From assembly GCA_963674735.2 (NCBI GenBank), contig CAXXQS010000001.1:2016001-2080000 (forward strand): a stretch of 64,000 bases of DNA. Direction: 5' to 3'. Numbering within the stretch: the stretch's first letter is position 1; each line of letters begins with the position of its first letter. Positions 9,203 through 26,318 of this stretch are shown piece by piece. Under the pieces are notes generated by a model, which saw nothing but the letters and a program-made list of their open reading frames with translations, did no database searches and was not told the DNA's origin. This DNA is from Myxococcota bacterium (GTDB taxonomy: Bacteria > Myxococcota_A > SURF-8). A program made the position numbers and the translations under genes.

Positions 9203-9225
9203 TTCGATTCCCCCCGTCTCCACCA
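9203..9225 (+). other. att site: 3' fragment of tmRNA (or tRNA-Ala), T-loop to CCA
   Basis: TTCGATT-CCCCC-CGTCTCC-ACCA gives a T-loop, the 3' T-stem strand and an acceptor strand compatible with a GGGGACG 5' end and a G3:U70 pair. The 5' T-stem strand is missing (upstream is AATTA), so this is a fragment and not a gene. Confidence 0.75.
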
Positions 9226-9241
9226 TTGTCTTCTTGTATTA

Positions 9242-9415
9242 TCAGACAGTTATAATTTTCCAGCCGTTTTGTGCGGCTATTGTGCGATTGCGATTCAGCA
9301 GTTGCACCGCCTCTCGTTTCACATTCGGACTGAGATGCATGTAGCGCATTGTCGTGCGAATGTCGGCATGACCCAGCAACTCTTTGATGGTCTGTGGGGT
9401 CTCACCAAGCATGCT
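9242..9415 (-). pseudogene. C-terminal remnant of a tyrosine recombinase/phage integrase
   Basis: Manual minus-strand translation gives MLGETPQTIKELLGHADIRTTMRYMHLSPNVKREAVQLL...*, containing box II LLGH and the catalytic Tyr. It ends 17 bp from the att fragment. Too short for the ORF track. Confidence 0.88.
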
Positions 9416-9424
9416 CCAAATGCG

Positions 9425-9529
9425 GCTGGATCAGCCCCGTCAACTACGGGCGGGCGTACTTGTCAGGCAAACTGGAGGTCGCCGCATGAGCCCCAACTCC
9501 TGAGTGTCCACCTTTCCAGGGGAGGATCA
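9425..9529 (+). mobile_element. 3' end remnant of an IS3-family element
   Basis: GWISPVNY...EVAA* resembles an OrfB C-terminus. It is followed by an IRR-like GTGTCCACCTTTCCAGGGGAGGATCA ending in CA. Confidence 0.5.
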
Positions 9530-10214
9530 CTCCGACGACCAGACCGAGCAGCAAGCGCTCGACCGTTTTTCTTTCATGCGTTTTTTAGGGATAGAACTTG
9601 GCGACGCCGTTCCGGACGCCCAAACCCTCTGGCTGTTTCGTGAGCGGTTGAAGGAGGTCGGTCTGGTCGAAACGATTTCCGTGTAGTTCAATGCGTTTCT
9701 TACCCAGCATGGCTTTGCGGCCCAGAAGGGTCAAATCGTGGACGCGAGTATCGTGTCCGTGCCCAAACAGCGCAAGCGTCGGGACGAGAATGAGAAGATC
9801 TAGCAAGGCGATGCCCTCGACGACTGGAGTGAAGCGAAGCGGCGGCAGAAGAATGTGGATGCGCGCTGGACGAAGAAGCGAGGCGTTACCTACTATGGTT
9901 ACAAGAATCATATTTACGTAGACGTGAAACACAAGTTCGTCCGAAACTACGCCGTGACCGACGCAGCGGTTCACGACAGCCAGGTGTTTGATGAGTTGCT
10001 GGATGAATCCAACACCAGCCGTGGCGTATGGGCGGATTCCGCCTATCGTTCGGAAGAGAAAATACAGAACCTGAGGGCCAATGTTTTCCGCGAACACTTG
10101 CATCACAAGGGCTATCGCAATCGACCCTTTACGGATTGGAAGCAAAGAGGCAACTGCACGCGAGCCAGAGTGCGCAGCCGTGTTGAGCACGTATTCGGGA
10201 TTCAGGCGAGATGA
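9530..10214 (+). pseudogene. IS5-family transposase pseudogene
   Basis: DRFSFMRFLG, VPDAQTLWLFRE, GQIVDASIV, DARWTKK, YGYKNH, VHDS and WADSAY motifs. Two in-frame TAG stops (9684, 9801) and both ends are missing. Confidence 0.9.
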
Positions 10215-10302
10215 ATCGGGGTAAATGACACCGGTCTCAAAACGCATCGATAGAGGTTGCCATAATATAATCCCCGTCAAATGGCGAAGACTTTGTCAAC
10301 GG

Positions 10303-10334
10303 TCTGAACGGGGAGGTTTCCCTCCCCGTTCGGA
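10303..10334. terminator. Stem-loop downstream of the giant surface-protein gene
   Basis: TCTGAACGGGGAGG-TTTC-CCTCCCCGTTCGGA inverted repeat about 10 bp past the stop at 10345. Confidence 0.65.
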
Positions 10335-10344
10335 AAGTCCGAAA

Positions 10345-13300
10345 TTATACAAACCACCTTCTTCGTCGTCGAGCTGCGATCAGGCCAATGATCATTGCCC
10401 CGATCAACTCAAGACCGTTGCCGGACCCAGAGGTCGTGTGGCATCCGCCATCACCGCCACCAGTTCCCTCATCGCCATCGACGGGCGATTCATCACCATC
10501 CACCTGCGGCTCGTCGCCATCCACCGGCGGTTCATTACCGTCCACAAAATCCCCATCTCCGTCATCACCGTCCTCGAATTCATCGCCGTCTTCAAGGGGA
10601 TCATCGCCATCCGCGACATCGTCACCGTCAACCTCTCCGTCACCGTCAACCTCTCCGTCACCGTCCACAACTCCGTCGCCATCCACGGGTTCGTCACCAA
10701 CGTGGATGCAGGCACCCGATTCACAATAGTCATCGGTGTAGGCGATCCCATCATCAGGACATGCCGTACCATCGGCTTGCGCACCGTAGTCCTCGGCATC
10801 TTCCTCCGAATTGCAGATCATGCAGGGATTATTCGGATCCTTCTGATCTTCGGCGACACACGCTCCCTCGATCAGACAGCCGGCATAGAGCACATGCTCA
10901 CACAGTCCCGCACCGTCACATTCATCCGCCGTACATTCCAGGGAGTCATCCGAACAAGGATAACTTTCCGCCTGGTAGCTCCAACCGGCCCGATCCTTCT
11001 CCGGATCGCAGACTTCGCATACGTTCTGGGGATTTTCAGCGCCACCCTGGAAGGTATCTTCACCGATAACACATTCGTCACGATCGACGTGCTCGCAAAC
11101 GCTGCTACCATCGCAGTAGTCATCTGTGTAATCCAAACCGTCGTCCGCACAAGGAACCCCGTTCGTTTTGGCGGAAAAGCCGTCGGTCGCCAGATTCGGC
11201 AGACAGGCCTCGCAATCGTTCGCCGGATTGTCGACGTCTTCGGCAACGCAGGCATCTTCGATCAGACAACCGGTGTAAAGATTATGCTCGCAGGTCCCCT
11301 GACCATCGCAGACGTCCCAGGTGCAATCCAAATCGTCCGTTTCGCAAGGGAAGTCCACCGCGCGGGTCGACCAGGCCACCGGGTCGTTATCCGCATCGCA
11401 GAATTCGCAAAGGTTGGCCGGGTTAGCGGCATTGGCGTCGTACACGGTTTCATCGATCAGGCACTCGCCCGTCTTCTCATGCGTACATACACCCTCCTGA
11501 CAAGAATCTGCCGTATAGACGATATCATCATCCGTGCACACCACACCATTCGCCACAGCGCTATAGGCCGATATGGAAACAGCGGGAATACAGGCCATGC
11601 ATTCATTGTTCGGATCGAGCGTATTCTCTTCGACACATGTATCCTCGATCACGCAGCCCGTATCAATGGGATGAATGCAGCTCCCGGTGCCGTCGCAAAC
11701 ATCGCTTGTGCAGGCCAGTTCATCATCAGCACACGCCGTCTGGTTCGCCAGATTGGTCCAAGTGGTTTTACTGACGGAAGGCTTGCAATACTGGCAATCG
11801 TTATCGGGATTCAGGTCGTTCTCGCTGTAGGTAACATCCTCAATGACACAATACTTGCTGTCGTCGTGAATGCAACTTCCCTGCCCGTCGCAATAGTCGT
11901 CGGTGTAGTCGAATCCATCATCCGTGCAGGCCACGCCTACTTCTTTCGAAGAGTACGCATCTGCCGTCGTATCGGGGATGCAGGCGGCACACTCGTTTTC
12001 GGGATCTTCAGTCCCTTCGGCGACACAGGTTTCGTCGATCAGACATCCCACGGTAAGTTCGTGCGCGCACGCACCTTCACCATCACAGAAATCGGCGGTG
12101 CAATCCCGTTCATCGTCAGAACAGGCCACCGATGTGTCGCTGGGCGACCATTGATCTTCCGACTCCAACGGCGCACACACTTCGCAGACATTCTCCGGGT
12201 TGCTCTCGCCGTCGTCATAGCTTTCATCACCGATATTGCAAATACGGATGCAAGCACCGCCTTCCATCGGGCAGCGCCACCCGTTCTCGATGTTCAAACA
12301 ATTTCCGCTGCAGCCATCTCCCGGCTCGTTGCCGCCATCGTCGCAAAGTTCACCAGTGACAACCGTTCCGTCTCCGCAGTCGGCGGTACAAGCCGAGGCT
12401 CCGGTGTCCGAAACGAACCCGTTCTCACAGGGTATACAAGCGATCTTCCCTGTCTGGCCCGCATAGGTATTGGTCGGGCAGTCATCACAGGCAACTTTAC
12501 CCGACTCTTCCGAGAACGTCCCCACCGGGCAGGCTTGGCAGGAGGTTGCACTGGCTGCGTAGGACCCCGCCTCGCAAACGTCGCATACCTCCGCGCCCTC
12601 GGTATCGTTCACATAGCCTTCCTCGCAGGGGATACATTCGCTTTGTCCGGTGAGCTCGACGTATGTTCCCACAGGACAAGCCGTGCAACTCTCGCCGCCC
12701 GTTTCCGAAGCGTAGGATCCGGCAGCGCATGGTTCACAAGCAGATGCTCCGGACTGAGCGGCATAAGTTCCAACCGCACAAAGTTCACATGACTCGCTGC
12801 CTGTTGCGCTGGCGTACGACCCGGCGGCACAAAGCACACAAGCACTCTGTCCGATAAGATCGTTGTACGTACCCACAGGGCAGAACTGGCAGGCATCATC
12901 GCTCGTCATCCCACTGCTCGGATTGTACGTTCCCGCCGCACACGCGGAGCATGCCTGTCCATTCCCCCAATAGCCAGGATTGCATGCACAGGTGAAGGAA
13001 CCGTCCGTATCCGTGCAGGTACCATTGGAATCGCAGTTGTCTGCCTGCGTGGCACATTCATTGATGTTGCTACATGTGGTGCCATTACCTTCGTAACCTT
13101 CATTGCAAGTACAGGTAAAGGAACCTTCGATATCCTCGCAGGTGGCGTTGTCGTCGCAGTCGTCCAGGTTTGCTTCACACTCGTCGACATTCACACAGAC
13201 GATGGCACCTTCCGACGAATCGTAACCGTCCGGGCATTCTTGGCAAGACGTTTCCCCTGTTGACGAGTTGTAAAATCCTTCCGGACAATTTGTGCAAGAC

Positions 13301-16300
13301 GCTGCTCCGGCGACCGCGTTGAAGGTCCCAGCCGGACAAGCGTCGCAATGCACGACATCCAAGACGGGATCATGGGATCCGGTATTTCCCGTACCGGAAG
13401 CAAACTCACCCGGTGGACAGGCAAAGCAGGCGCTAAGGGCGGTAAACGGAGCGACGGTTCCCTCCAGACAGAGCGTGCATGAGGTTTGCCCGGTTTCCCC
13501 ATTGTAGGAACCCAGTTCACAAGGACTGCAGGATTGGCTGCCGGTTCCACTGGAATAGTATCCTTCGGGACAAGGAGTGCAGGCCGCCTGTCCCATATTT
13601 TCGCTGTACGTTCCGGCAACGCAAGCATTACAACTGGCCTGCCCTGCCTGATCCTGATACGTTCCGGCAACGCAGTCTTCACAACTGGCCTGACCCGTCT
13701 GATCGTTGTACGTTCCGGCGGCGCAGGCATTACAACTGGCCTGCCCCGTCTGATCCTGATACGTTCCGGCAACGCAGTCTTCACAACTGGCCTGACCCGT
13801 CTGATCCTGATACGTCCCGGCAACGCAGGCTTCACAACTGGCCTGACCCGTCTGATCTTGATACGTCCCGGCCGCGCAGGCATTACAACTGGCCTGCCCT
13901 GTCTGATCCTGATACGTCCCGGCCGCGCAGGCTTCACAACTGGCCTGCCCTGCCTGATCCTGATACGTTCCGGCAACGCAGGCATTACAACTGGCCTGAC
14001 CCGTCTGATCGTTGTACGTTCCCGGCGCACAGTATGCGCAGGAAATACTCCCCGCTTCGTCGGCATAAGTTCCGGCCTCACAAGCTATGGGTGAGGTGCT
14101 TGCATCGGCGCAGGAGTACCCCTCGGGACAGATCAAACATGAAAGAAAGCCTGTTTGGTCGGCGTAGTAGCCGTTACTGCAAGCCACTGGAGCGATACTT
14201 GCATCGGCGCAGGCATGACCTGTCGGACATACCGTACATTCTGTAGACCCAGAATTATCAGCGTAAAAGCCTTCATCACATGGCGTACATTCCGTGCTTC
14301 CGGTGCCAGAGGCATAGGTTCCAACCTCACAAGCTATGGGTGAGGTGCTTGCATCGGCGCAGGAGTACCCCTCGGGACAGATCAAACATGAAAGAAAGCC
14401 TGTTTGGTCGGCGTAGTAGCCGTCACTGCAAGCCACTGGAGCGATACTTGCATCGGCGCAGGCATGACCTGTCGGACATACCGTGCATTCTGTAGACCCA
14501 GAATTGTCGGCGTAAAAGCCTTCATCACATGGCGTACAAGTAGTTCCATTCCCGAAGTAACCCGCATCACACGCACACGTAAAACCGCCCGCTGTGTTTG
14601 TGCAGCTGGCGTTTGCGTCACAGTTGTTGCCGCCGCCTTCGCCCGAGCACTCGTCGTAATCGGTGCAGGTCACGCCGTCACCCGAGTATCCGCTGTTGCA
14701 GGCGCAGGTGAACGATCCTGCCGTGTTGCTGCAAGTAGCGTTCGCGTCACAGTTGTTGCCGCCGCCTTCGCCCGAGCACTCGTCGTAATCGGTGCAGCTC
14801 ACGCCGTCACCCGAGTATCCGCTGTTGCAGGCGCAGGTGAACGATCCTGCCGTGTTGCTGCAAGTAGCGTTCGCGTCGCAGTTGTTGCCGCCGCCTTCGC
14901 CCGAGCACTCGTCGTAATCGGTGCAGCTCACGCCGTCGCCCGAGTATCCGCTGTTGCAGGCGCAGGTGAACGATCCCGCCGTGTTGCTGCAAGTAGCGTT
15001 CGCGTCACAGTTGTTGCCGCCGCCTTCGCCCGAGCACTCGTCGTAATCGGTGCAGCTCACGCCGTCACCCGAGTATCCGCTGTTGCAGGCGCAGGTGAAC
15101 GATCCCGCCGTGTTGGTACAGCTGGCGTTTGCGTCGCAGTTGTTGCCGCCGCCTTCGCCCGAGCACTCGTCGTAATCGGTGCAGCTCACGCCGTCGCCCG
15201 AGTATCCGCTGTTGCAGGCGCAGGTGAACGATCCCGCCGTGTTGGTACAGCTGGCGTTTGCGTCGCAGTTGTTGCCGCCGCCTTCGCCCGAGCACTCGTC
15301 GTAATCGGTGCAGCTCACGCCGTCACCCGAGTATCCGCTGTTGCAGGCGCAGGTGAACGATCCCGCCGTGTTGCTGCAAGTAGCGTTTGCGTCGCAGTTG
15401 TTGCCGCCGCCTTCGCCCGAGCACTCGTCGTAATCGGTGCAGCTCACGCCGTCGCCCGAGTATCCGCTGTTGCAGGCGCAGGTGAACGATCCCGCCGTGT
15501 TGCTGCAAGTAGCGTTTGCGTCACAGTTGTTGCCGCCGCCTTCGCCCGAGCACTCGTCGTAATCGGTGCAGCTCACGCCGTCGCCCGAGTATCCGCTGTT
15601 GCAGGCGCAGGTGAACGATCCCGCCGTGTTGCTGCAAGTAGCGTTTGCGTCACAGTTGTTGCCGCCGCCTTCGCCCGAGCACTCGTCGTAATCGGTGCAG
15701 CTCACGCCGTCACCCGAGTATCCGCTGTTGCAGGCGCAGGTGAACGATCCTGCCGTGTTGCTGCAAGTAGCGTTCGCGTCGCAGTTGTTGCCGCCGCCTT
15801 CGCCCGAGCACTCGTCGTAATCGGTGCAGCTCACGCCGTCGCCCGAGTATCCGCTGTTGCAGGCGCAGGTGAACGATCCCGCCGTGTTGGTACAGCTGGC
15901 GTTTGCGTCACAGTTGTTGCCGCCGCCTTCGCCCGAGCACTCGTCGTAATCGGTGCAGCTCACGCCGTCACCCGAGTATCCGCTGTTGCAGGCGCAGGTG
16001 AACGATCCCGCCGTGTTGGTACAGCTGGCGTTTGCGTCACAGTTGTTGCCGCCGCCTTCGCCCGAGCATTCGTCGTAATCGGTGCAGCTCACCCCGTCGC
16101 CCGAGTATCCGCTGTTGCAGGCGCAGGTGAACGATCCCGCCGTGTTGCTGCAAGTAGCGTTTGCGTCACAGTTGTTGCCTCCGCCTTCGCCCGAGCACTC
16201 GTCGTAATCGGTGCAGGTCGTGGGCGACGCGCCATTGCACAGCCAACCGCTTTCGTCCTGGCAAGTGGAACTGCAGCCGTCTCCGCTGTCGGTGTCGCTG

Positions 16301-17697
16301 TCGTCGCAAGTTTCCCCGGATTCAACGGTCCCATTGCCGCAAACCGAACCGGCTTGAATTATCAGCGTGTAGTCCTCCGCTTCGCCATATCCTTGATCGC
16401 CCGTGGCGGTCGGCGCACCGTCATACTTCAACACAATACGCATGCGTGTTGACCCCAGACTTGCCGTGGCGGGAATCGTGATGGAAGTACTTGCCGTCAA
16501 CGGGTTCGTTGTCTCCAGCGACCCATCAGTTAAAACCGTAAAGGTCTCGCCGGAATCCCCGAAATTGTCGTTCTGGTTCCAGTCGATAAATGCGCTAATA
16601 TAATACGGATCAAGCGCATCACTGCTTGCCACCGTTATGCTCAACGTATGGGTGTCTTCGCGCGAAACCGTTGTGGATACGGAGGTGTAATCCCCATAGC
16701 CGTCGGTCGATTCGTAGCCGGTGTCTTTGTCGATGGTGTTGAACGTAACGTTGCTGATGGCGTCGTAGGTATTATCGCAGGTGATCGCCAGAGCGGATTG
16801 GACCGAAATCGTAAACGCCTCGGCAAAATTGTAGGTTCCGTCGTAGCTGTTGATGCGCACGGAATAGCTGCCCGCCGTCAGCGAGGCATTGGCCCGCAGG
16901 CTGGTCCCGCTGATGTTGAAGCTGCCGTTATCGGTGTCACCCGCGCCCGAAACAAGCGAGTAGGCATGCGTATCGCCACTGTTGGCGTCGGTGGTGCTCA
17001 GTGTGCCGACCACCGCATTGACGCCCGCGCCTTCGCTCAAAGTGTTGTTGCTCAGCGAAATATCCGTCGGAGCCATTGGTCCCAAAGTCCCTCTAATGTA
17101 AATCTCGTCGATGGCGGAGTTCGAGCCGCTGTCGATGACTCCAGACCACCCGCCGAGCGCCGTTGTATTGCGGGGCATCCAGCGAATACCAACGCTGGAG
17201 TTGGCCTCGCAGGCGCTAGGAAGTGAGTAATTGCTGATCGAAGCCCAGTAGCTCGATCCGGAATTCGGACTGCCCGGCAAATCCACTGTCGCTCCGTCGG
17301 TCCAGCCGGAACCGCAGTCATACTGCATCTTCCAGTACCGGGGGGAGGATTCGAAAGATGTCGCGTAAGCAAGATGCAGGGACGATACGGTAATGTTGGC
17401 AAAGCCCACCGTGCTGATATTTACATTCCAGTTGTCCGAAGTGGAGTCCCAGCCATCGTTCGAGTTGGCCTGAGTGCTGTTGGGCAGCCCCACACCCGAC
17501 CAGAAAAGCGCCGAGACTCCGGAAGTATTCAGTTGTTTACCCACATTGGCGCTTGCTCCGCCTGCGCTGTTGTTGGAATTCCAATAGGCAATATCATCGG
17601 CAAACGCCGTACCGACAAACAACAGAATAAATGCCAGCACTTGCGTTGCCGTTTTTAGTAGTGCCACCCAACGTCTGGAGGTTGCAAATCCCATCAT
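10345..17697 (-). CDS. Giant secreted Cys-rich surface protein (cadherin-like, GEVED, Myxococcus Cys-rich repeat, 13x cbEGF, ephrin-receptor/TNFR-like Cys repeats, DGD linker, MYXO-CTERM-like anchor), 2450 aa
   Basis: Signal peptide (...GTAFA). APTDISLSN...VGTLSTTD is cadherin-like. AFIDWNQNDNF...GEAEDY is GEVED. CGNGTVESGETCDD...GDGCS matches the myxobacterial Cys-rich repeat. D-x-D-E-C...C-x-N-x-x-G-S-F-x-C are EGF repeats. The C-terminus is GGDGGC + TM + RRRRR. Confidence 0.9.
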   Translation of the reverse strand: MMGFATSRRWVALLKTATQVLAFILLFVGTAFADDIAYWNSNNSAGGASANVGKQLNTSGVSALFWSGVGLPNSTQANSNDGWDSTSDNWNVNISTVGFANITVSSLHLAYATSFESSPRYWKMQYDCGSGWTDGATVDLPGSPNSGSSYWASISNYSLPSACEANSSVGIRWMPRNTTALGGWSGVIDSGSNSAIDEIYIRGTLGPMAPTDISLSNNTLSEGAGVNAVVGTLSTTDANSGDTHAYSLVSGAGDTDNGSFNISGTSLRANASLTAGSYSVRINSYDGTYNFAEAFTISVQSALAITCDNTYDAISNVTFNTIDKDTGYESTDGYGDYTSVSTTVSREDTHTLSITVASSDALDPYYISAFIDWNQNDNFGDSGETFTVLTDGSLETTNPLTASTSITIPATASLGSTRMRIVLKYDGAPTATGDQGYGEAEDYTLIIQAGSVCGNGTVESGETCDDSDTDSGDGCSSTCQDESGWLCNGASPTTCTDYDECSGEGGGNNCDANATCSNTAGSFTCACNSGYSGDGVSCTDYDECSGEGGGNNCDANASCTNTAGSFTCACNSGYSGDGVSCTDYDECSGEGGGNNCDANASCTNTAGSFTCACNSGYSGDGVSCTDYDECSGEGGGNNCDANATCSNTAGSFTCACNSGYSGDGVSCTDYDECSGEGGGNNCDANATCSNTAGSFTCACNSGYSGDGVSCTDYDECSGEGGGNNCDANATCSNTAGSFTCACNSGYSGDGVSCTDYDECSGEGGGNNCDANATCSNTAGSFTCACNSGYSGDGVSCTDYDECSGEGGGNNCDANASCTNTAGSFTCACNSGYSGDGVSCTDYDECSGEGGGNNCDANASCTNTAGSFTCACNSGYSGDGVSCTDYDECSGEGGGNNCDANATCSNTAGSFTCACNSGYSGDGVSCTDYDECSGEGGGNNCDANATCSNTAGSFTCACNSGYSGDGVSCTDYDECSGEGGGNNCDANATCSNTAGSFTCACNSGYSGDGVTCTDYDECSGEGGGNNCDANASCTNTAGGFTCACDAGYFGNGTTCTPCDEGFYADNSGSTECTVCPTGHACADASIAPVACSDGYYADQTGFLSCLICPEGYSCADASTSPIACEVGTYASGTGSTECTPCDEGFYADNSGSTECTVCPTGHACADASIAPVACSNGYYADQTGFLSCLICPEGYSCADASTSPIACEAGTYADEAGSISCAYCAPGTYNDQTGQASCNACVAGTYQDQAGQASCEACAAGTYQDQTGQASCNACAAGTYQDQTGQASCEACVAGTYQDQTGQASCEDCVAGTYQDQTGQASCNACAAGTYNDQTGQASCEDCVAGTYQDQAGQASCNACVAGTYSENMGQAACTPCPEGYYSSGTGSQSCSPCELGSYNGETGQTSCTLCLEGTVAPFTALSACFACPPGEFASGTGNTGSHDPVLDVVHCDACPAGTFNAVAGAASCTNCPEGFYNSSTGETSCQECPDGYDSSEGAIVCVNVDECEANLDDCDDNATCEDIEGSFTCTCNEGYEGNGTTCSNINECATQADNCDSNGTCTDTDGSFTCACNPGYWGNGQACSACAAGTYNPSSGMTSDDACQFCPVGTYNDLIGQSACVLCAAGSYASATGSESCELCAVGTYAAQSGASACEPCAAGSYASETGGESCTACPVGTYVELTGQSECIPCEEGYVNDTEGAEVCDVCEAGSYAASATSCQACPVGTFSEESGKVACDDCPTNTYAGQTGKIACIPCENGFVSDTGASACTADCGDGTVVTGELCDDGGNEPGDGCSGNCLNIENGWRCPMEGGACIRICNIGDESYDDGESNPENVCEVCAPLESEDQWSPSDTSVACSDDERDCTADFCDGEGACAHELTVGCLIDETCVAEGTEDPENECAACIPDTTADAYSSKEVGVACTDDGFDYTDDYCDGQGSCIHDDSKYCVIEDVTYSENDLNPDNDCQYCKPSVSKTTWTNLANQTACADDELACTSDVCDGTGSCIHPIDTGCVIEDTCVEENTLDPNNECMACIPAVSISAYSAVANGVVCTDDDIVYTADSCQEGVCTHEKTGECLIDETVYDANAANPANLCEFCDADNDPVAWSTRAVDFPCETDDLDCTWDVCDGQGTCEHNLYTGCLIEDACVAEDVDNPANDCEACLPNLATDGFSAKTNGVPCADDGLDYTDDYCDGSSVCEHVDRDECVIGEDTFQGGAENPQNVCEVCDPEKDRAGWSYQAESYPCSDDSLECTADECDGAGLCEHVLYAGCLIEGACVAEDQKDPNNPCMICNSEEDAEDYGAQADGTACPDDGIAYTDDYCESGACIHVGDEPVDGDGVVDGDGEVDGDGEVDGDDVADGDDPLEDGDEFEDGDDGDGDFVDGNEPPVDGDEPQVDGDESPVDGDEGTGGGDGGCHTTSGSGNGLELIGAMIIGLIAARRRRRWFV
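13620..14030 (-). repeat. 51-bp (17-aa) coding tandem repeat, about 8 near-identical copies
   Basis: C(A/V)AGTY(Q/N)DQ(T/A)GQASC(N/E)(A/D) units. Confidence 0.9.
14045..14538 (-). repeat. 249-bp (83-aa) coding tandem duplication
   Basis: CATCACATGGCGTAC recurs at 14274 and 14523. TPCDEGFYADNSG...SPIACE occurs twice. Confidence 0.9.
14539..16215 (-). repeat. 129-bp (43-aa) coding tandem repeat, 13 copies (calcium-binding EGF-like)
   Basis: TCGTCGTAATCGGTG recurs every 129 bp from 14651 to 16199. Unit: TDYDECSGEGGGNNCDANA(TCS/SCT)NTAGSFTCACNSGYSGDGVSC. Confidence 0.97.
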
Positions 17698-18127
17698 GTT
17701 TTCCTCATTTCAATATCTGATTCAGTTTTCTACGTTGCCCGCATCGGAGCTAGCGGGCTTCGCAATAGCTTGGTCGATCATTACTCACTGATAAAAACGT
17801 CTCGGGCGTCACACAGGCTCTTTTACAATCGGCATTCTTGGAGCCAGTACGCAAACGTTGCCTGCCTATTTGCCTACTCATAACATCGACCATAAAACTT
17901 AAAATTGAAGTGCTATTTGGGGTCGCGACTCTTTTCCGTCAATCCTCAGACAAGCGGAGAGTCGTAAAAGCCTTTGAGATCATGCAGATATACGCGATTC
18001 GAAGAACACGATACCCGCTCGTGGATACCGAGAACACCATCAGGCGCGATTCGGCGGCACCCGCATGAGAGTAAACAACTTTTATGCGTGGGAGCGAAAC
18101 TCGAACGTTCCATATTTCGGATTAAAG

Positions 18128-18468
18128 AAAATCAGCGCTTGAGACGAAAAAGCCAATGATTTCAAGGGAATATTTCGATGGTTGCAATCGGTTAGCGAGT
18201 GCAATCATCAAACTATCGCTGTAGCCACTCGAAATATCCGGTGATTCTGTACCGTTACAGGTTGACAACCTTTAGAGGGTTTTCGACGCCGAGTTGCACG
18301 GGCTCCACCAATTTTTCAGCATCGAACCCGCTCTCTGTTAGATCAGGGAGGCGGGTTTCGTGTTTCTGGAGTGGTCTATATCTGCTTGAATATCAAAGGG
18401 ATTTCGCTTTCAGTCGCCGACAAAGCAACCAACCCAGAACGGACAGCGCAACCACACATCCCGCCTAT
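18128..18468 (+). repeat. ~340-bp non-coding direct repeat, copy A (attP-like junction, core CTCCACCA at 18303-18310)
   Basis: Aligns with 20837-21175. The left arm is nearly identical and the right arm is more diverged. GCAACCA/GTAGCCA motifs lie on both sides of the core, with a hairpin just after CCA. Confidence 0.9.
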
Positions 18469-19073
18469 CATCGGCCAATTCTCGGCGGTTCTTTCTCTGT
18501 TTCTCTGAAATTTCGCTCCGTAGAAGACTCATTGAGGCCGGAGAATGGCCAGTCCTGCCTGTCCAAAAATCTACCGATGAAAACGACCCCGAATTGCCCT
18601 GATTTCATGTCCACAAGCCATGTCCAAAAGCCTGCAACAACCAAATGGTTGTGGACAGTTGTATTTTAGTACGAAAGTCGGTATCCACGGCGGTCGATAA
18701 TAATATCAATACCTTGGAAACCAAGCCGCGTCGCCAGACGCAAAAACAAGCGGCGAGTTTCATGTATTGAGTATACAAAAATTGGGCTTGCGTCAAACCC
18801 GCTGGATTCGTATAATGATCTCGCTCCCTTACAAGGCCACGGTTTATGATCGGGCCCTCGTAGAGGGTATGAAGAATTTTGTCCGCGTTGAAATTACGTG
18901 CTTTTTCGAGACTGTCCCTTAAATCTGCTTTCCTCTTTGAGAGGAATCTCCTTTTCGCCTGAACCAGACCGACTAGACCGCGAAGTTCAGACTTGCCGTT
19001 AAAGGAAACACTCATGAATCGCAAGGAAACCGTGAAATCAATCACCGATGCTGAAAGTGAATGTAGAAGCACC

Positions 19074-20809
19074 ATGCGAATAGTCTTGACGGCGGTTGCC
19101 CTTGTTTCGACGCTGTGCTCGTACGCCCATGCAGATCAGACGATTGAAGCGACCTTCCCAGCGCACATGTCCGAACCGGAACACGTAGAAACACTTTTGG
19201 AACCACTCGACATCGAGGGGATACTGAAGGCGGCGGAAACCCGCTCGGGTTGGATTGAGCCATTGCCTGAAGAGGAACTGCCGAGCAGATTTTCCTGGCA
19301 TGACTTTGAGGGCGAAGATTGGATGAGCCCGGTCCGCAGCCAGGGAAGCTGCGGATCCTGCTGGACGTTCGGTGCGCTGGCGGCACTTGAAGGCCATATT
19401 AACCTTGCCATGAACGATTCCGGTTTCGATATGGATCTCTCCGAGCAGTTCATGGTCGCTTGCGGGGCGGGTAGCTGCGCCAGTGGAGGAATGGCGGAGG
19501 AAGTGCTGTTGGATTTGCAGACTGAGGGTATTCCAGATGAAGCCTGTTACCCCTATTTAGCCGAAGAAGGCGAATGCGCGGACACCTGCTCCGATTGGCG
19601 GGACCGGGTAATCAAGATCTATGACTGGTATATCCTGATCAGTCCAACCGAGGAGCAGTTGAAGACCGAGTTGTTGAACGGACCCATGCCGGTCACCATG
19701 CGGGTGGAAGGAAGCTTTCACAGTTACAATTCCGAAAGCGGTGTGTTTGTGGGTAGCGAGACTCCTTGCGGATTTTTGAAAACCAAGTGAACCATGTGGT
19801 CGCGCTTGTCGGTTGGGACGATGACGATGATTGCTGGATCGCTAAAAACAGTTGGGACGACGACTGGGGTGAGAACGGCTACTTCCGCATCAAGCGTGGC
19901 ACTTCGTGCCTGGGCTCGTTTACCGCCAACTGGCTGCGCGTGGACGACACCACCATTCCAGGTAGCGGGCGCACGGCTGCTATTTGCGGTCCCGTGACGG
20001 TCTCTCAGGAGGTGGACGTCGAACAAGGAGAAACAAGCGAGAATGCAGTCGAGATCACGTTGACCAACTGCGGTAATGTGTCCACACCTTGGTCCGTGCT
20101 TGAAGATGCCCGGGAATGGGCCCAGTGGCTGTCGATTTCGCCGCTCGAGGGAACGCTGGAGGCGGGAGCGAGCGAAACGGTGTCCGTAACGGTTCTGGGC
20201 GACGGCAAAGAATTGGGCAATTACCAGCTTCACCTCGATTTCGAGCCCCTGAAAACTGGCGAAGCCTACGGCTTCGACTTGACCGTGAACATCATGGAAG
20301 AACAGCCGGATGGCGACATGGATGAAGACGGCGATGCCGAAAGCGAAACCGATGCTGAAGCCGCCTGTATCGAAGAAGGTGGAAGTATTGCGGTGATCCC
20401 TGGTGGACCTTCCTGCTGCGAGGGTCTCTCGGCGATCGGCTGCGACAGCCCGCAGGATGACGGATCTTGCCCCATGGGTTGCGAGGGATCGGTCTTCTGT
20501 GCCAACTGCGGAAACGATATCTGTGGACCGGGAGAGAACAATTGCAATTGTCCCGAGGACTGCACCGCCCCAACGGACGGAGACGGTGAGACCGATGACG
20601 CTATCACACCCGATGGGGACACGGTTCCCGATGGGGATAGTTTTTCTGACTCTGACAGCGATGGAATCCCGGACAAAGACAAGGAAAGCCTTGGCAGCGG
20701 GGATGGAAGTTGTCGTAGCGCAGGCAGCCCAGGCGGCGTGCTGTTTTCGTTGTGGCTGCTCGGTTGCCTGCTCGTCTGTCGTCGCATGAGATTCGCCCAA
20801 GGTCGATAG
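19074..20809 (+). CDS. Secreted papain-family (C1A) cysteine peptidase with Ig/BACON-like domain, DGD linker and MYXO-CTERM-like anchor; single-base frameshift near 19775
   Basis: Signal peptide, then QGSCGSCW (catalytic Cys). NHVVALVGW and KNSW lie in the next frame, and adding one T to GGATTTTTGAA restores CGFFENQVNH. The C-terminus is GSGDGSC...TM...RRMR. Confidence 0.88.
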
Positions 20810-20836
20810 TTCCGACCTTCTATCCCTGTTACGGGA

Positions 20837-21175
20837 AAAATCGGCGCGTAAAACGAAAAAACCAATAATTTCAAGAGAACATTTCGATGGTTGCAATCGG
20901 TTAGCGAGTGCAACCATCAAACCCTCGCTGTAGCCACTCGAAATATCCGGTGATTCTGTACAGTTACAGGTTGACAACCTTTAGAGGGTTTTCGACGCCG
21001 AGTTGCACGCCCTCCACCAATTATCACGAAACAAACTTGCTCTCCGCAGAAGCGGCGAGCTTGTTTCGTTTTATGGGAGCGTGCTATATCTGCTTAATAT
21101 CAAAGGCTTTTCGTCGCTATGCACTTCCCGAGCAACTTACCCGAATCGGACAGCGCAGCCAGACATCCCGCCCAT
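20837..21175 (+). repeat. ~340-bp non-coding direct repeat, copy B (core CTCCACCA at 21012-21019)
   Basis: See copy A. The two cores are 2709 bp apart. Confidence 0.9.
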
Positions 21176-21562
21176 AGCTTGCATACTGGGCGATACTAAG
21201 CTGTACCGTAGGAACCTGCTATTAAGGTGGTTTTCATTGGGGCGGATTATTGCCACATGTTGATTGACCCTAGCTGGCAGAACGGAAGGGGCAACTTGGC
21301 AGCATCGCGCAACGGAATCGCCAGTGATGTTTAACAGCACATCATTGGCCTTCACTTCAACATTGCTAAGCTGGTTTGCATGCTTTGCAGAAATGTAGAC
21401 AAGGCCACTATGATGGAATCCTGAATTATATACGTTTTGACTACGTATTAAGGCAATTTCACCTGCGTCTTTATAGACCTTTGACCCGCCTCTTGGGGTT
21501 GCACCACTACCGATTTTACTGCACACCTCCCATAATTGGACTTTTCGCCACTCAGCCGCCAT
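21176..21562 (-). pseudogene. hsdS: Type I restriction-modification specificity subunit, N-terminal TRD only (truncated)
   Basis: [26 protein letters not shown]...DVLLNITGDSVAR...ARVNQHVAIIR. It overlaps the hsdM stop and runs into repeat copy B after about 129 aa. Confidence 0.88.
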
Positions 21563-22288
21563 AGCCCAACCCCTTCAAGTTCTTCCGAATCGCCTTTTCC
21601 AGCCGGGCGGATTCCTTGAACTGCTCATCCAATTCGGCGCTCAGGCGAGCCATCTTTTCGGGGAAGGGTTCGCCATCATCCTCGATGGCCTCGGCTCCTA
21701 CGTAGCGTCCCGGTGTCAGCACAAAGCCGTGGGACTGGATCTCCTCCACCGTGGCGCTCTTGCAGAAACCGGGGATGTCTTCGTACTTAGCCGCGCCCTT
21801 GTCCCCGCGCCATGCGTGGTAGGTTCCGGCGATCTTGGCAATATCGTCATCGGTCAGTTCCCGATGCACCCGGTCAATCATGCTACCCATCTTGCGGACG
21901 TCAATGAACAACACCTGCTTTCGGCGGTCACGGAAACGGCCATTCTGCTTGTTCTTGGACACAAACCACAGGCAGACGGGAATCTGCGTGGAATAGAACA
22001 ACTGCCCCGGCATGGCCACCATGCATTCCACCAGATCCGATTCCACCATCTTCTGCCGGATGTCGCCTTCACCACTGGTGTTGGAACTCATGGAGCCGTT
22101 AGCCAGAACGAAACCCGCCATGCCCTTCGGGGACAGATGGTGGATGAAATGCTGTACCCAGGCGAAGTTGGCGTTGTTCTGGGGCGGGATATCGTAGACC
22201 CAGCAGACATCATCCCGCAACTGATCCCCGCCCCAGTCTTTCGAATTGAACGGTGGGTTCGCCAGAATGAAGTCGGCCTTCAGGTCCT
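21552..22288 (-). pseudogene. hsdM: Type I RM methyltransferase, C-terminal half (5' part lost at IS end)
   Basis: [32 protein letters not shown] and LTPGRYVG motifs. The N-terminus and motif I are absent. Confidence 0.92.
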
Positions 22289-22840
22289 TGTACATCTTCA
22301 GCGAAAGTGGGACAAATGATGGTTTATTTCTAAGGGAGACTTTGAGCCATTTGTTGTTCGTTCCGGTCCGGGTGGTTTCGGTTCATGATCTTTCGGTTTT
22401 CAAGAGTTCTTCGCTTCAATTCGGCTCGTTTTCGTAAGATCGCCTCCTTTCTGTCGAAATATACGTCATCCGGCGTGACGTTGCCAAGAGCTTCGTGAAC
22501 CCGGCGTTGGTTGTACCAATTCACGAATTCCAGGATTTCGTTTTCGATCTGAATCGGCGTTTCGTGGACGTTCTGGTTGACGTGCTCTTTCAGACTACGG
22601 TGATAGCGCTCGATCTTGCCGTTGGTCTGCGGGTGGTACGGGGCGCCGAAAATGTGGTGAATGCCTTTGATATCCAGATATTCCGCCAACTCACCACTGA
22701 CCAGCGCGCTGCCTCGATCCGACAGGATGCGCGGCTTGGTTTTCATCCTGTCCACACCTGCAAACTCGCAGGCTGCCTCGATCACCTCCGAGAAATCCGG
22801 CACCCGCATGGTGGGCTGCAGCCGCCAGGCCAGGGAGCTT
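22289..22840 (-). mobile_element. 3' part of an IS3/IS481-type (rve integrase core) IS, truncated by the adjacent IS
   Basis: LSDRGS, PYHPQTNGKIERYH and YNQRRVHEALGNVTP motifs. Terminal sequence TGTCCCACTTTCGCTGAAGATGTACA abuts hsdM. Confidence 0.82.
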
Positions 22841-23091
22841 TGCGGCTCCCTACGGACTGGCCTCATAATTGGATTCGACTGTCCGGGAAGATCGTAACTT
22901 TTTCATTTGAATCGTAGCACAAATCACCTTTCCGATCATCCTTTTCGTGGCACACTGGCCGTACCCGTACGAAGGATAGGGCTCCGCTGGAGAGCGACCC
23001 GAGCATCGGATGGGTGGACGACGGAGGGACAGGTTCGTATGCCTGTCCTTTCTTTTTTCTGTCCCTTCGGAGTCCGCTAAAGCGTTAAACT

Positions 23092-23931
23092 TCAGGGGTT
23101 CGGGGGCAGCGCCCCCGAGAAGAAACGCTGTCGTTCCTCCTGCGGCGTTCGATACTCCAGACCACTGTGCGGACGATACGTATTGTATTTCCTGCGCCAC
23201 ATTTCCGTCTTCACCTGCGCCTCCCGCAAGGTCAGGAAAATCTCCATGTTCAAATGCTCGTCGCGTACCTTCGAATTGAAACTCTCGATGAAACCGTTCT
23301 GCCAGGGACTGCCCGCGTCGATGTGCAAGGTGTCCGTACCGCGCTTGTTGAGCCAGTTTTTCAGTTTTTCGGCGATGAATTCCGGGCCGTTGTCCGAGCG
23401 GATAAACGCCGGATTTCCGTGCTGATTGAATAGATCGTCGAGAATGCAGATCAGATCAGCCGACTTGATGCCACGGCCCACATGTATCGCCAGACCTTCC
23501 CGCGTGTACTCGTCCTCCACCGTTAACAGTTTGATCCGCCTGCCGTTCGAAAGTGAATCGAACATGAAATCGTACGTCCATACGTGGTTCGGACATTCGG
23601 CCTTGACCGGCAGGCCCGCCATCTTCGTTCTCTTTTTCTTGCGCGGCTTTCGCCTCAGAAGGCAAAGTCCAAGTTTACGCCAGACGCGATAAACCCGTTT
23701 CAGGTTGACGACCTCATCCCGGACGATCACACCCCAGGCCCGTCGATACCCGAAGCGCGTCTCGTCTTCTGCAATCGCTTTCAGTCGGACCGCCAGGACC
23801 GAATCGTCACGCGGATGGGCCTTGTAATAGTACGTGGACCGTTGCAGTTTCACCAACGCGGCGCTCCGCCGGACGGACAGACCACGCGAGGCCGCGCGAT
23901 CCACCGCACACCGACGATGCGCCGCCTTCAC
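23092..23931 (-). CDS. IS3-family transposase OrfB
   Basis: RFGYRR, NHVWTYDF, RSDNGPEF, PWQNGFIESFN and YNTYRPHSGL motifs. Confidence 0.93.
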   Translation of the reverse strand: MKAAHRRCAVDRAASRGLSVRRSAALVKLQRSTYYYKAHPRDDSVLAVRLKAIAEDETRFGYRRAWGVIVRDEVVNLKRVYRVWRKLGLCLLRRKPRKKKRTKMAGLPVKAECPNHVWTYDFMFDSLSNGRRIKLLTVEDEYTREGLAIHVGRGIKSADLICILDDLFNQHGNPAFIRSDNGPEFIAEKLKNWLNKRGTDTLHIDAGSPWQNGFIESFNSKVRDEHLNMEIFLTLREAQVKTEMWRRKYNTYRPHSGLEYRTPQEERQRFFSGALPPNP

Positions 23932-24265: not shown

Positions 24266-26318
24266 AATGTTGATTCCGGCGCGTCCCTGCACATCCGCAC
24301 GGCTGCCATAAGAACTCCAAAATTTTCGTGAGCGGCGTGGTAGATAATCATAGGCGAAGCCGGAATATAATTCGTAATTTTGAAGATCCTGGCTGATGCC
24401 CGCCGCAACAATGATGCTGCCGGATTCCGAAAAGGAACGCGACGAACGCCGCAGTTTTTTGAGTGGTGAGGGATATTGGATCCCTTCGCCCCAATCGATA
24501 TCGCCATCGGGATAATCGAATTCGAAATCGCTGTCGCTTACGTCTGTGTCGAATTCCCCCAGTTCGTAATCGTCATCCACCGGCAACACATATTGCGGAT
24601 CATCCATATTTACACCAGCCGAAAATAACGCGATGTTTTGAAAACTGATGCCGTTCCCCGGAATATTGACCGCCACAATGTCGTTGGCTGTGATGGTGCT
24701 GATAAAATCGTGAAACTCCGGCCACACCTCGATCGGACAGGCACCCTGGGCGTCGCCGACGAGCCCGGACACGTAGCAGCCCAGAGGCGCTTCCAGCAGG
24801 AACACCGCCCCGTTTCCCTCCGCGTCGTTGATCAATCGAAGAGCAATGTCGATCCAATCGGCGGTGGACCATACCTGGCCGATGTAATAACGCGAATGTG
24901 GTGCGAAACCCATGCCTCCGGCGTGAATACCGCTGTTATAGTCGGCGGCCATGATGCCCAACACGGGCGTTCCGTGCGAGTATCCAAATTTGTAATTACC
25001 GCCATTGCGGCGATCCGGCGTCACGTATCGCAGGTAGGTCGAATGGAAGGTGGCCAGATCGGGATGTGTCGGGCAGTCAACATCATAATTGCCGCCTTTG
25101 GCGTTCAGGCACCAGTCTTCTTCGACGTATCCGACGGGTACGTTCTCTCCGAGATAGCCCTTGTCCCAGGCGGGCTAGGCGTTCAGGCCACCCGTGGTGC
25201 AGTCACCGTCTCCGCAGATTAAGCCGGGAGGTAACTTGTCGGGAGGCAAGTAATCGGCGTCTCCATCCTGAAGGTCATCGATGGCGAGAGTACGGTCGTA
25301 ATCACCGTCGGTAGAGTAGGTGTCCGACGCAGTCTGAAGCTGATACTCGGTCCAATCGGCGGTTCCAGCCTATTGATAAAAAGAAGAATAATTATCATCT
25401 GGTCTAAAATCAGCGAATGTTAGCCAATCCCATATCGACGTCAATGGGTAATTCTCGTACAGAATATCCGGCCAGCTCGACCGGATAAATGGCGGCATTG
25501 CATGCGCCGTTTCCACACCGGGAAGCGACGTCAGTAAATCGATAACCCTCCGGATCTGCTCGGCGTCCTCGGCGCCTAGCAGCGGCGTGCGTTCGTCCTT
25601 CTTGTCGATCGTCTCCTTCTCGAAAAGGCCTGGAACCGGCGTGACTTCCATCCATTGCGACAAATCCGGAAGGATCCGGCCGCTTCTTTTCTCACCCCGT
25701 TGTTTAAGCTAGGTCAGTTTCTCCGGATCGCCCCAAAGCGGTTTCATGTCGAGTTCGGAATATTCATAATCGAGATAATAGAGCGCCTGTTCGTCGCTGC
25801 ATTTTCCGTTTTCGTCACGAAGTGTGGTGACGCCATCGACTTTCTGAAGATGCACGCCGGCTTTCATCTGCACGTGGATACGGCCGGTTGAGAATTCCAA
25901 GGGGATCGAGGGAGCCCTCCGGATACCCTTGGATTCTTCTTCCGCAGGACCATAGATTCCCCCGGGCAAGCCCGGGGTCCTTACCTTTACGGTTCCGACC
26001 CCACCGCTGCTTAATCGCAACGACGGGGAATGGCTCATTCATCCACGGGCAAGCCCGTGGTATTCTGTCTTCGACCGCATAAAGAACCTGTTGACGTACC
26101 AGACTATCCGACCCGTGATAGGACGGAGCGGAGTTCTCAGTACCTTCCGCCAGTCCGATGCCGAGATCCCGATCGCCGTCGATTCCCACGATCTCTTCAT
26201 CAAGAGCGGGGTTTTCGAACTCTGAAGCCTCTCCGGTAGAAGCAACTGCATGAATTGACAATAACAGAGCGGTACCCCCCACACTCAGCCAACCGAAAAT
26301 ATTTTTTAGTCCTATCAT
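24266..26318 (-). pseudogene. Secreted subtilisin-like (S8) peptidase, disrupted by one frameshift, three in-frame TAG codons and IS truncation
   Basis: Signal peptide at 26318. One frame continues through TAGs at about 25709, 25370 and 25176: GLNA*PAWDKGYLGENVPVG, SHGTPVLGIM (His), IPGNG, SSYGSRADVQG. The catalytic Ser region was removed by the IS. Confidence 0.82.

Follow-up and report, generated by a model that had tools for sequence, protein, structure and literature searches.

How does a single protease gene come to lie between two long direct repeats, each of which carries at its centre the last letters of an RNA gene? This question is raised by a 64,000-nt stretch of the genome of a Myxococcota bacterium (assembly GCA_963674735.2, contig CAXXQS010000001.1, positions 2,016,001 to 2,080,000), which is called the window in the following and to which all plain position numbers refer. 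The repeats are found at 18128-18468 and 20837-21175, and both are built around the 8-mer CTCCACCA, the same 8 nt that end the gene of the transfer-messenger RNA (tmRNA; gene ssrA) and the tRNA-Ala(CGC) gene in related genomes. We consider it probable, with a good deal of doubt left, that the repeats are seams that arose from successive insertions of islands at the last 8 nt of a tmRNA/tRNA-Ala gene. The analysis covered the 5.26-Mb genome under study (G000) and a comparison set of ten species genomes of the class, G000 included, in which the family of the repeat modules was traced.

The repeat pair and its core

In a global alignment of the two repeats, the core CTCCACCA is identical in 8/8 positions; it occupies 18303-18310 in copy 1 and, as recognized by 8-mer identity, 21012-21019 in copy 2 (both plus strand), which gives a core-to-core distance of 2709 bp. 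The left arms agree in 161 of 175 columns without any gap (92.0%), whereas the right arms agree in 120 of 166 columns with 18 gaps (72.3%). The change in identity between the two copies is located at CTCCACCA, and the 100 nt outside either end of the repeat are at background level, with 46% and 52% identity. A preliminary description of this locus had seen two ~340-bp direct repeats with almost identical left arms and diverged right arms, and both points are borne out by the alignment. BLAST and profile searches found only these two full copies in the genome, and each of them consists of a module L (~190 nt), the 8-nt core and a module R (~225 nt).

By itself, the 8-mer CTCCACCA would be weak evidence, because its six occurrences on both strands of the window (1.52 expected) were reached in 1 of 100 shuffles; its meaning derives from the relatives. 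On the plus strand it is found at 9218, 18303 and 21012, so that every seam carries a copy of the target-gene 3' end. The first of these belongs to a displaced 3' fragment of a tmRNA gene (9203-9225, plus strand) that ends in CTCCACCA and matches the last 23 nt of the ssrA of this genome in 22 positions, in agreement with the earlier identification of the core as the 8-mer that ends a tmRNA/tRNA-Ala fragment. No tRNA, tmRNA or complete RNA gene was detected in the whole window by ARAGORN or by Rfam at the gathering score, and an Rfam search of 17900-21300 up to E = 5 returned one irrelevant weak match. The short "tRNA-like" repeats of this region are scars and not genes. A role of CTCCACCA as a recombination core that is linked to the 3' end of ssrA and of tRNA-Ala is supported.

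Near-end and far-end modules in the relatives

The DNA behind every ssrA gene found in the class, i.e. in eight of the ten genomes, was checked with an R profile built from eight copies. A full R module directly follows ssrA in five of these eight genomes (G004, G008, G009, G002 and G006; E <= 1e-30), and in a sixth, G007, the contig stops ~47 nt past the gene and the match covers only the beginning of R (E = 1.5e-4). No R is found behind ssrA in G000 and G003; each of these two genomes possesses a tyrosine integrase 0.8-2.3 kb downstream of ssrA, and in G003 an R module is located directly behind a tRNA-Ala(CGC) gene. Because R follows ssrA directly across genomes of the class, it represents the usual ssrA trailer in this group, of which copies also travel with islands. 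One R copy of G003 is split between two contigs (L007, G003:C3, 1488-1700; L010, G003:C1, ~1495-1540), with one half beside the end of an IS630-type transposase gene and the other behind a degenerate ssrA 3' fragment; this genome is heavily rearranged by insertion sequence (IS) elements.

The near-end modules of the window belong to different types. R1 (18311-18539, plus strand; R profile E = 3e-53) is of the G004/G008 type, as the segment 18303-18389 is 91% identical over 87 nt to the DNA from the last 8 nt of ssrA onward in these two genomes. R2 (21020-21183, plus strand; E = 1.6e-37) is cut short at profile position 172 and, in a by-eye comparison with the ssrA trailers, is of the type found directly behind ssrA in G006 and in G002, which belongs to the same family as G000. 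The preliminary description had noticed a hairpin right after the CCA, and indeed both copies possess a strong hairpin (-26.0 kcal/mol in R1, -22.9 kcal/mol in R2) 6-12 nt past the CCA that is followed by a T-rich run. The same arrangement occurs in all 11 R copies that were folded, with energies from -17.7 to -28.6 kcal/mol. The stems of these hairpins differ in sequence while the shape is kept, and the hairpin is therefore a predicted terminator that is maintained by selection. Conserved boxes follow the hairpin, and the inner end of R is sharply defined (...ATTTCG).

On the other side of the core, L1 (18128-18302, plus strand; L profile E = 7.7e-60), which is 92% identical to L2, contains a stem-loop at 18161-18224 (-20.4 kcal/mol, z = -4.4), and L2 (20837-21011, plus strand; E = 5.4e-57) contains one at 20870-20933 (-21.1 kcal/mol, z = -3.7). 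A profile search located a third L on the minus strand 11 kb to the left of the window (G000:C1:2004656-2004855), and BLAST with this copy as query detected more copies in G003, G008 (two), G009 and G006 (several). Ten L copies from five genomes can be aligned and all of them end at the core, which is degenerate in the copies G008b and G009. Because a 21-kb segment that is common to G003 and G008, two members of different families, is 93.4% identical and then ends in L and core in both genomes, L represents the far end of a transferred island.

The alignment sets the variable hairpins of L out of register, and the copies were therefore folded individually. Each of the ten then shows the same three-tier hairpin of ~56 nt with differing stem sequences, and z is at or below -2.6 in nine of them. 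This result bears on the previously proposed lambda-type layout, in which repeated arm-type motifs flank the core. TGGTTGCA and TGCAA(T/C)CA turned out to be the two halves of one inverted repeat, namely the L stem-loop, and the GCAACCA-like motifs and TATCAAAGG are not conserved in the alignments of other L and R copies. The proposed arm-type motifs are accordingly not conserved across the element family, and a lambda-type layout is not supported.

The conserved folds also invite another explanation, in which L and core encode, as a gene or as a 3' untranslated element, a structured RNA with a CCA end, R provides the terminator, and the copies are paralogous. The hairpin common to ten out of ten L copies and the terminator after the CCA in all folded R copies would fit well, and as the protease gene was read to have no terminator of its own before R2, L2 would lie within its transcript. 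On the other hand, neither Rfam nor ARAGORN recognized an RNA here in the searches described above, a sigma-70 consensus scan of 17600-21400 found no promoter-like site where 2.8 were expected, and the L hairpin folds equally well on the opposite strand, which favours neither strand. RNAalifold on the L alignment gave -3.15 kcal/mol, with only 1 of 15 pairs changed on both sides, and copies of the G006 element described below that start at the core are not accounted for. We consider this RNA explanation unlikely. The L structure may act at the level of RNA or of single-stranded DNA, or it may serve as a palindromic protein site.

A further short word, ATTTCGGAC or its reverse complement, is found where L begins, within R and, in both G004 copies, twice shortly behind the inner end of R, where it straddles the boundary between R and cargo (L019/L020, g4 coordinates 290-330 and 25030-25070). 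A protein site, or else a second joining point, is conceivable here; genome-wide, 60 occurrences of ATTTCGGAC and related words were found and 33 expected, which is no notable enrichment.

Whether the core is also the place of exchange can be judged from the points at which the identity between related copies breaks off. In the window, this point lies at the core, as described. Between G004 and G008, the body of the tmRNA varies, but from the CCA on the DNA is letter-identical for ~205 nt, and the sequences beyond are unrelated; a BLAST alignment of the two, which includes the final 58 nt of ssrA, shows 96.7% identity over 270 nt. An 8.3-kb element of G006 is present in four copies that are 93-94% identical from the core, or from 3 nt before it; their left flanks differ and consist of a partial L, an L variant or ssrA 3' fragments. 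Because the identity breaks fall at the core in these three independent cases, they appear to mark site-specific exchange at CTCCACCA and not a plain duplication. Stacks with two R copies could also be recognized, with the order ssrA-core-R1, 23.5 kb, L-core, partial R2 in G008 and ssrA-core-R1, 24.7 kb, core-R2 in G004, and in both relatives the array begins at an intact ssrA. The comparison of the arms with the genome and its relatives, which the preliminary description had called for together with a tabulation of the cargo, thus shows modules that align behind ssrA or tRNA-Ala and bracket unrelated cargo. This cargo comprises chemotaxis, glycosyltransferase, heat-shock and defence genes in other genomes and one gene here, which does not support the idea of a cassette system for secreted proteins.

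It has to be asked, nevertheless, whether the pair could result from a plain segmental duplication, or from homologous recombination between older copies, with no site-specific recombinase involved. The restriction to two full copies in the genome and the richness of the region in IS pieces and broken genes speak for such an origin, and also the contigs of three public sequencing runs, all from one study, which contain the stretch and were examined in this form, revealed no circle or empty-site joint; contigs drop rare forms and cannot show them. A duplication predicts an even divergence, whereas 92% and 72% were observed with the change at the core. Furthermore, R1 and R2 are different R types that stand behind ssrA in different genomes, and the same core breaks recur in G004, G008 and G006, and we regard an origin by duplication as quite unlikely. 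In one of the runs (X2), a low-depth contig of 258 nt that matches 18303-18391 contains an R module of the G004/G008 type, and the 22 nt to which this module is joined at the core belong to a sequence other than L; a second organism or locus with an R module is therefore present in that sample.

A probable stack of islands and its candidate recombinases

If CTCCACCA is the crossover point of a site-specific integration, the modules would take the following roles. R, with its short AT-rich trailer, its intrinsic terminator and the conserved boxes, would be the normal stretch behind ssrA, and as copies of R form the gene-proximal end of the islands, an inserted island would still terminate the transcription of the RNA gene. 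L, which stops exactly at the core and carries the conserved stem-loop, would be the far end of the island. For the window, we infer a stack that starts with a unit from the tyrosine integrase at 9226 to L1, continues with the unit R1-protease-L2 and is followed by R2, which is probably an old native ssrA trailer that was cut short by restriction-gene and IS debris. In the simplest history, R2 would be native, units ending in L would have been inserted successively at the core, and a rearrangement would then have moved the stack, leaving the ssrA of G000, which carries other islands, at its present distance of 1.4 Mb. Movement of the protease unit would depend on a recombinase from elsewhere acting on its two cores, as in a cis-mobilizable element.

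The preliminary description had regarded both repeats as attP-like junctions. For copy 1 this is supported, as it consists of a far arm, the core and a near arm and is thus composed like the junction of two stacked units. For copy 2 an attR, in which an island end is joined to the old native trailer, is more likely than a rebuilt attP, because the R2 type directly follows ssrA in G002 and G006. The array in G000 as a whole is probably a decayed and displaced relic.

Three candidates can be named for the recombinase, each of which is based on few independent observations and none of which is proven. The first is a tyrosine integrase, of which a C-terminal remnant of 62 codons is found at 9242-9430 (minus strand, from translation); 17 nt separate its stop codon from the core. 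Behind the third L (C1:2004514-2004633) lies another remnant that is 95% identical to it over 39 residues, and beside either repeat itself no integrase is found. The nearest intact integrase relatives in G000 are 63-73% identical over 40 residues, and in the class the remnant has no close relative, the best being 59% identical. The two segments of core and integrase remnant (G000:C1:2004514-2004863 and 9218-9440 of the window) are 96.6% identical over 149 nt and stand in inverted orientation ~20.6 kb apart, the former behind the third L and the latter behind the ssrA fragment. This arrangement points to an inversion between the two, or to a duplication. In the islands that extend from R to L in G004, G008 and G003 there is no match to PF00589, the scanned frames of the G004 and G008 islands contain no tyrosine integrase according to Pfam, and the 341-aa gene beside R1 in G004 has no match in Pfam or NCBIfam.

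The second candidate is a CcrB-like large serine recombinase, which together with DUF2924 is encoded right after R in the multi-copy element of G006. At 12 other loci with homologues of this serine recombinase (in G000, G002, G003, G004, G007, G008 and G009) no R was present, and its best relative in G000 is 38% identical. In the G006 element (L097, G006:C1:3073700-3093699, 10062-18344), R is followed by DUF2924, the large serine recombinase, three unnamed genes and a gene whose product of ~1030-1120 aa fuses an ATP-dependent DNA ligase to an AAA ATPase. The recombinase is present in at least four intact copies and, in addition, a broken one.

The third candidate is an rve gene of the IS481/IS3-like type, which forms a unit of ~1.7-1.8 kb together with L. 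This unit occurs at three loci, two in G008 and one in G009, with 76-87% identity; the gene encodes 387-425 aa where it is intact, a 274-aa frame remains at the third locus, and two of the three units end at a degenerate core. The conservation of this unit could mean that a DDE enzyme of the rve family moves the islands, with L as an IS481-like terminus and the two CTCCACCA as an 8-bp target-site duplication. By eye, however, there are no terminal inverted repeats, and the first bases of R and the last bases of L show neither conservation nor complementarity. Seven of the ten aligned L copies have no rve gene upstream, G000 has no close homologue of it (best 27-34% identical), and the core belongs to the target RNA genes themselves, which makes a DDE mechanism very improbable in our view.

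Several observations weigh against the view that the repeats are seams of successive island insertions. In G000, the array adjoins neither ssrA nor any tRNA gene and its start is without an intact target gene, as the ssrA of this genome is located at C1:607260-607611, 1.4 Mb from the array. The term "tmRNA-anchored" of the preliminary description is thus not appropriate for this genome, and a later rearrangement must be assumed to explain the position of the array. The two inverted integrase remnants and a partial R in inverted orientation (17925-18026, minus strand; profile positions 40-142, nhmmer with the R profile E = 4.2e-10; inverted repeats I1 and I3) make such a rearrangement plausible. 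Furthermore, R1 is identical in G004 and G008 and yet the cargo differs from the inner end of R on, which simple integration does not account for. The point in G003 that corresponds to the boundary between R1 and cargo of the G008 island falls within an intact 512-aa frame, and this island is therefore no clean copy of a circular element. The ~12 nt right after the core vary among the R copies, which is odd for the half-site of a recombinase, and the commonest arrangement seen, L-core-R, would also fit a single functional unit. As for the enzymes, both core-adjacent tyrosine integrases in G000 are truncated, the large serine recombinase is found beside R in G006 only, and the IS481-like gene is joined to L at three loci in only two genomes.

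The unexplained cargo of G004 and G008, the G003 frame, the variable bases after the core and the common L-core-R arrangement keep alive the RNA explanation and also the possibility that L-core-R is the working site of an undescribed gene-capture system that docks at the CCA end of tmRNA/tRNA-Ala. R would then be a fixed platform that ends the transcription of the RNA gene and leads into the cargo, any cargo could be joined at the inner end of R (...ATTTCG), and L would close the unit, with its hairpin being read as a folded structure much as in attC by a recombinase acting in trans. If true, this would account for the identical R with differing cargo in G004 and G008 and for single-gene units. 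We think that such a capture system is improbable and favour successive insertion of islands at the core.

The ssrA gene of G000 itself heads a separate stack, with AT-rich DNA right behind the gene and an integrase at ~605 kb (C1:519966-607611). Repeats of ssrA are located there at C1:575498-575520 (23 nt, adjacent to a gene for a 387-aa integrase) and at C1:519966-519987 (22 nt), and a repeat of 25 nt lies at 2322653-2322677.

As far as the protease unit is concerned, its description as an integrase-less 2.7-kb unit holds, as open reading frames and Pfam revealed no recombinase in 18311-21011. The unit has a core and modules on both sides and no integration gene, and its only gene with a family match, which is its sole cargo, encodes a papain-family (C1A) protease with a Peptidase_C1 and a BACON_2 domain (19014-20809, plus strand; Pfam, with the family confirmed by a protein atlas). 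In the window this gene reads as two frames (18993-19790 and 19766-20809). The assembly has five T at 19768-19772, and an extra T after 19772 results in a single protease frame of 598 codons. As this extra T, and thus a run of six, is present in the contigs of all three runs, the gene itself is intact, and its apparent frameshift is a homopolymer error of the assembly, in which further frameshifts at homopolymers may likewise be erroneous.

The preliminary description had assigned a MYXO-CTERM-like anchor to this protein, and while the assignment to the C1A proteases stands, no NCBIfam or Pfam model confirms MYXO-CTERM. The tail with its cysteine, hydrophobic stretch and arginine-rich end is visible by eye only. 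A tail of the same type, with Gly/Cys, a hydrophobic stretch and an arginine run, can be seen in the cargo protein of the preceding unit (gene at 10345-17697), and no model matched this shared tail. Putatively, one and the same route would bring both cargo proteins to the cell surface. Relatives of the protease occur at 35-63% identity in seven of the nine other genomes, mostly as open frames of 463-585 aa. At seven such loci, all with 51-63% identity, neither L nor R was found within ~1.5 kb, and the neighbourhoods in G004 and G006 have no gene order in common with the window.

Known systems and the surroundings of the array

Integron cassettes are small, often single-gene units that are arranged head to tail and end in an imperfect palindrome with a conserved shape. 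The protease unit resembles them as a small single-gene unit that ends in a shape-conserved hairpin. Unlike in an integron, there is no IntI beside the array and apparently no attI/attC consensus, and the seams are ~400 nt long, tied to an RNA gene end and possess R at every seam. The array also differs from IS elements and miniature inverted-repeat transposable elements, as by eye the L and R ends are not complementary and the repeated 8 nt are those of the target gene itself.

It was hence correct to state, as had been done before, that the array is neither an integron nor an IS, but tandem accretion with units that lack a recombinase has already been described (PMC3146451, PMC5704250). For Dehalococcoides, McMurdie et al. 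2011 (PMC3146451) report tandem islands at ssrA with a short ssrA repeat at each seam; autonomous units possess a CcrB-like large serine recombinase beside the seam, and some units without integration genes were proposed to be cis-mobilizable. The system described here is similar in its stacked islands, in the target-gene 3' end at the seams and in the recombinase-less units, and also in the CcrB-like recombinase after R in the G006 element. In Dehalococcoides, the repeat has 20 bp and the crossover lies in the T-loop (PMC3146451), whereas only the last 8 nt are common here. Unlike what is described there, tRNA-Ala is also used, long conserved L and R modules with hairpins are found at the seams, and the G000 stack is located away from ssrA and lacks an intact recombinase.

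For streptococcal integrative and conjugative or mobilizable elements, a review (PMC5704250) describes a decay to cis-mobilizable elements, followed by accretion through a newcomer that integrates into an existing att site. The protease unit is similar in that both attachment sites are kept, the integration genes are lost and it stands in tandem with relatives (PMC5704250). It differs from the elements described in that source in that no conjugation or mobilization genes were seen here.

According to the Islander work (PMC4383910), tyrosine integrases cross over in the T-stem region or else at sites centred on the anticodon, and serine integrases are stated as not known to target tRNA genes. 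The 3' end of a tRNA-type gene as target, the restored gene end and the displaced fragment at the far end are features in common with the islands treated there (PMC4383910), and the truncated tyrosine integrases that abut the core here likewise resemble tyrosine-integrase islands of that description (PMC4383910). An overlap of 8 nt at the extreme CCA end that is common to ssrA and tRNA-Ala is unusual by comparison with the sites described there (PMC4383910).

Measured against what these sources describe, the array is a lineage-specific version of the known tandem accretion and not a new cassette system. It differs from the systems compared here in the 8-nt overlap, in the use of both ssrA and tRNA-Ala, in the long L and R modules with their shape-conserved hairpins and in one single-gene unit. 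If the repeats are indeed seams of successive insertions, this would be a lineage-specific family of islands in which one 8-nt site serves two kinds of target genes, and the long recognizable end modules would ease the tracing of islands in a poorly sampled class.

Outside of the class, pattern scans were made in three collections. Those of viral_contigs for L and for R gave no match each, and among the 32 matches to an L-end pattern in metagenome_contigs none was like L or R. A scan of genome_contigs for the L end, with a spacer of 13 N rather than the intended 12, gave 13 matches that are all due to chance, 12 of them representing one and the same conserved stretch.

Some features around the protease unit complete the picture of the window. 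The unit that ends in L1 carries as its cargo the gene of a 2450-aa surface protein with EGF repeats (10345-17697, minus strand; Pfam EGF_3, EGF_CA, Ephrin_rec_like and GEVED). Between it and the integrase remnant, frames at 9504-10214 look by eye like a broken DDE transposase of the IS4/IS5 type that truncated the integrase. On the other side, R2 is cut short by truncated type I restriction-modification genes (21137-22295, minus strand; pieces of hsdS and hsdM, Pfam Methylase_S and N6_Mtase), which are followed by IS3-family pieces at 22330-23931 (Pfam rve and rve_3).

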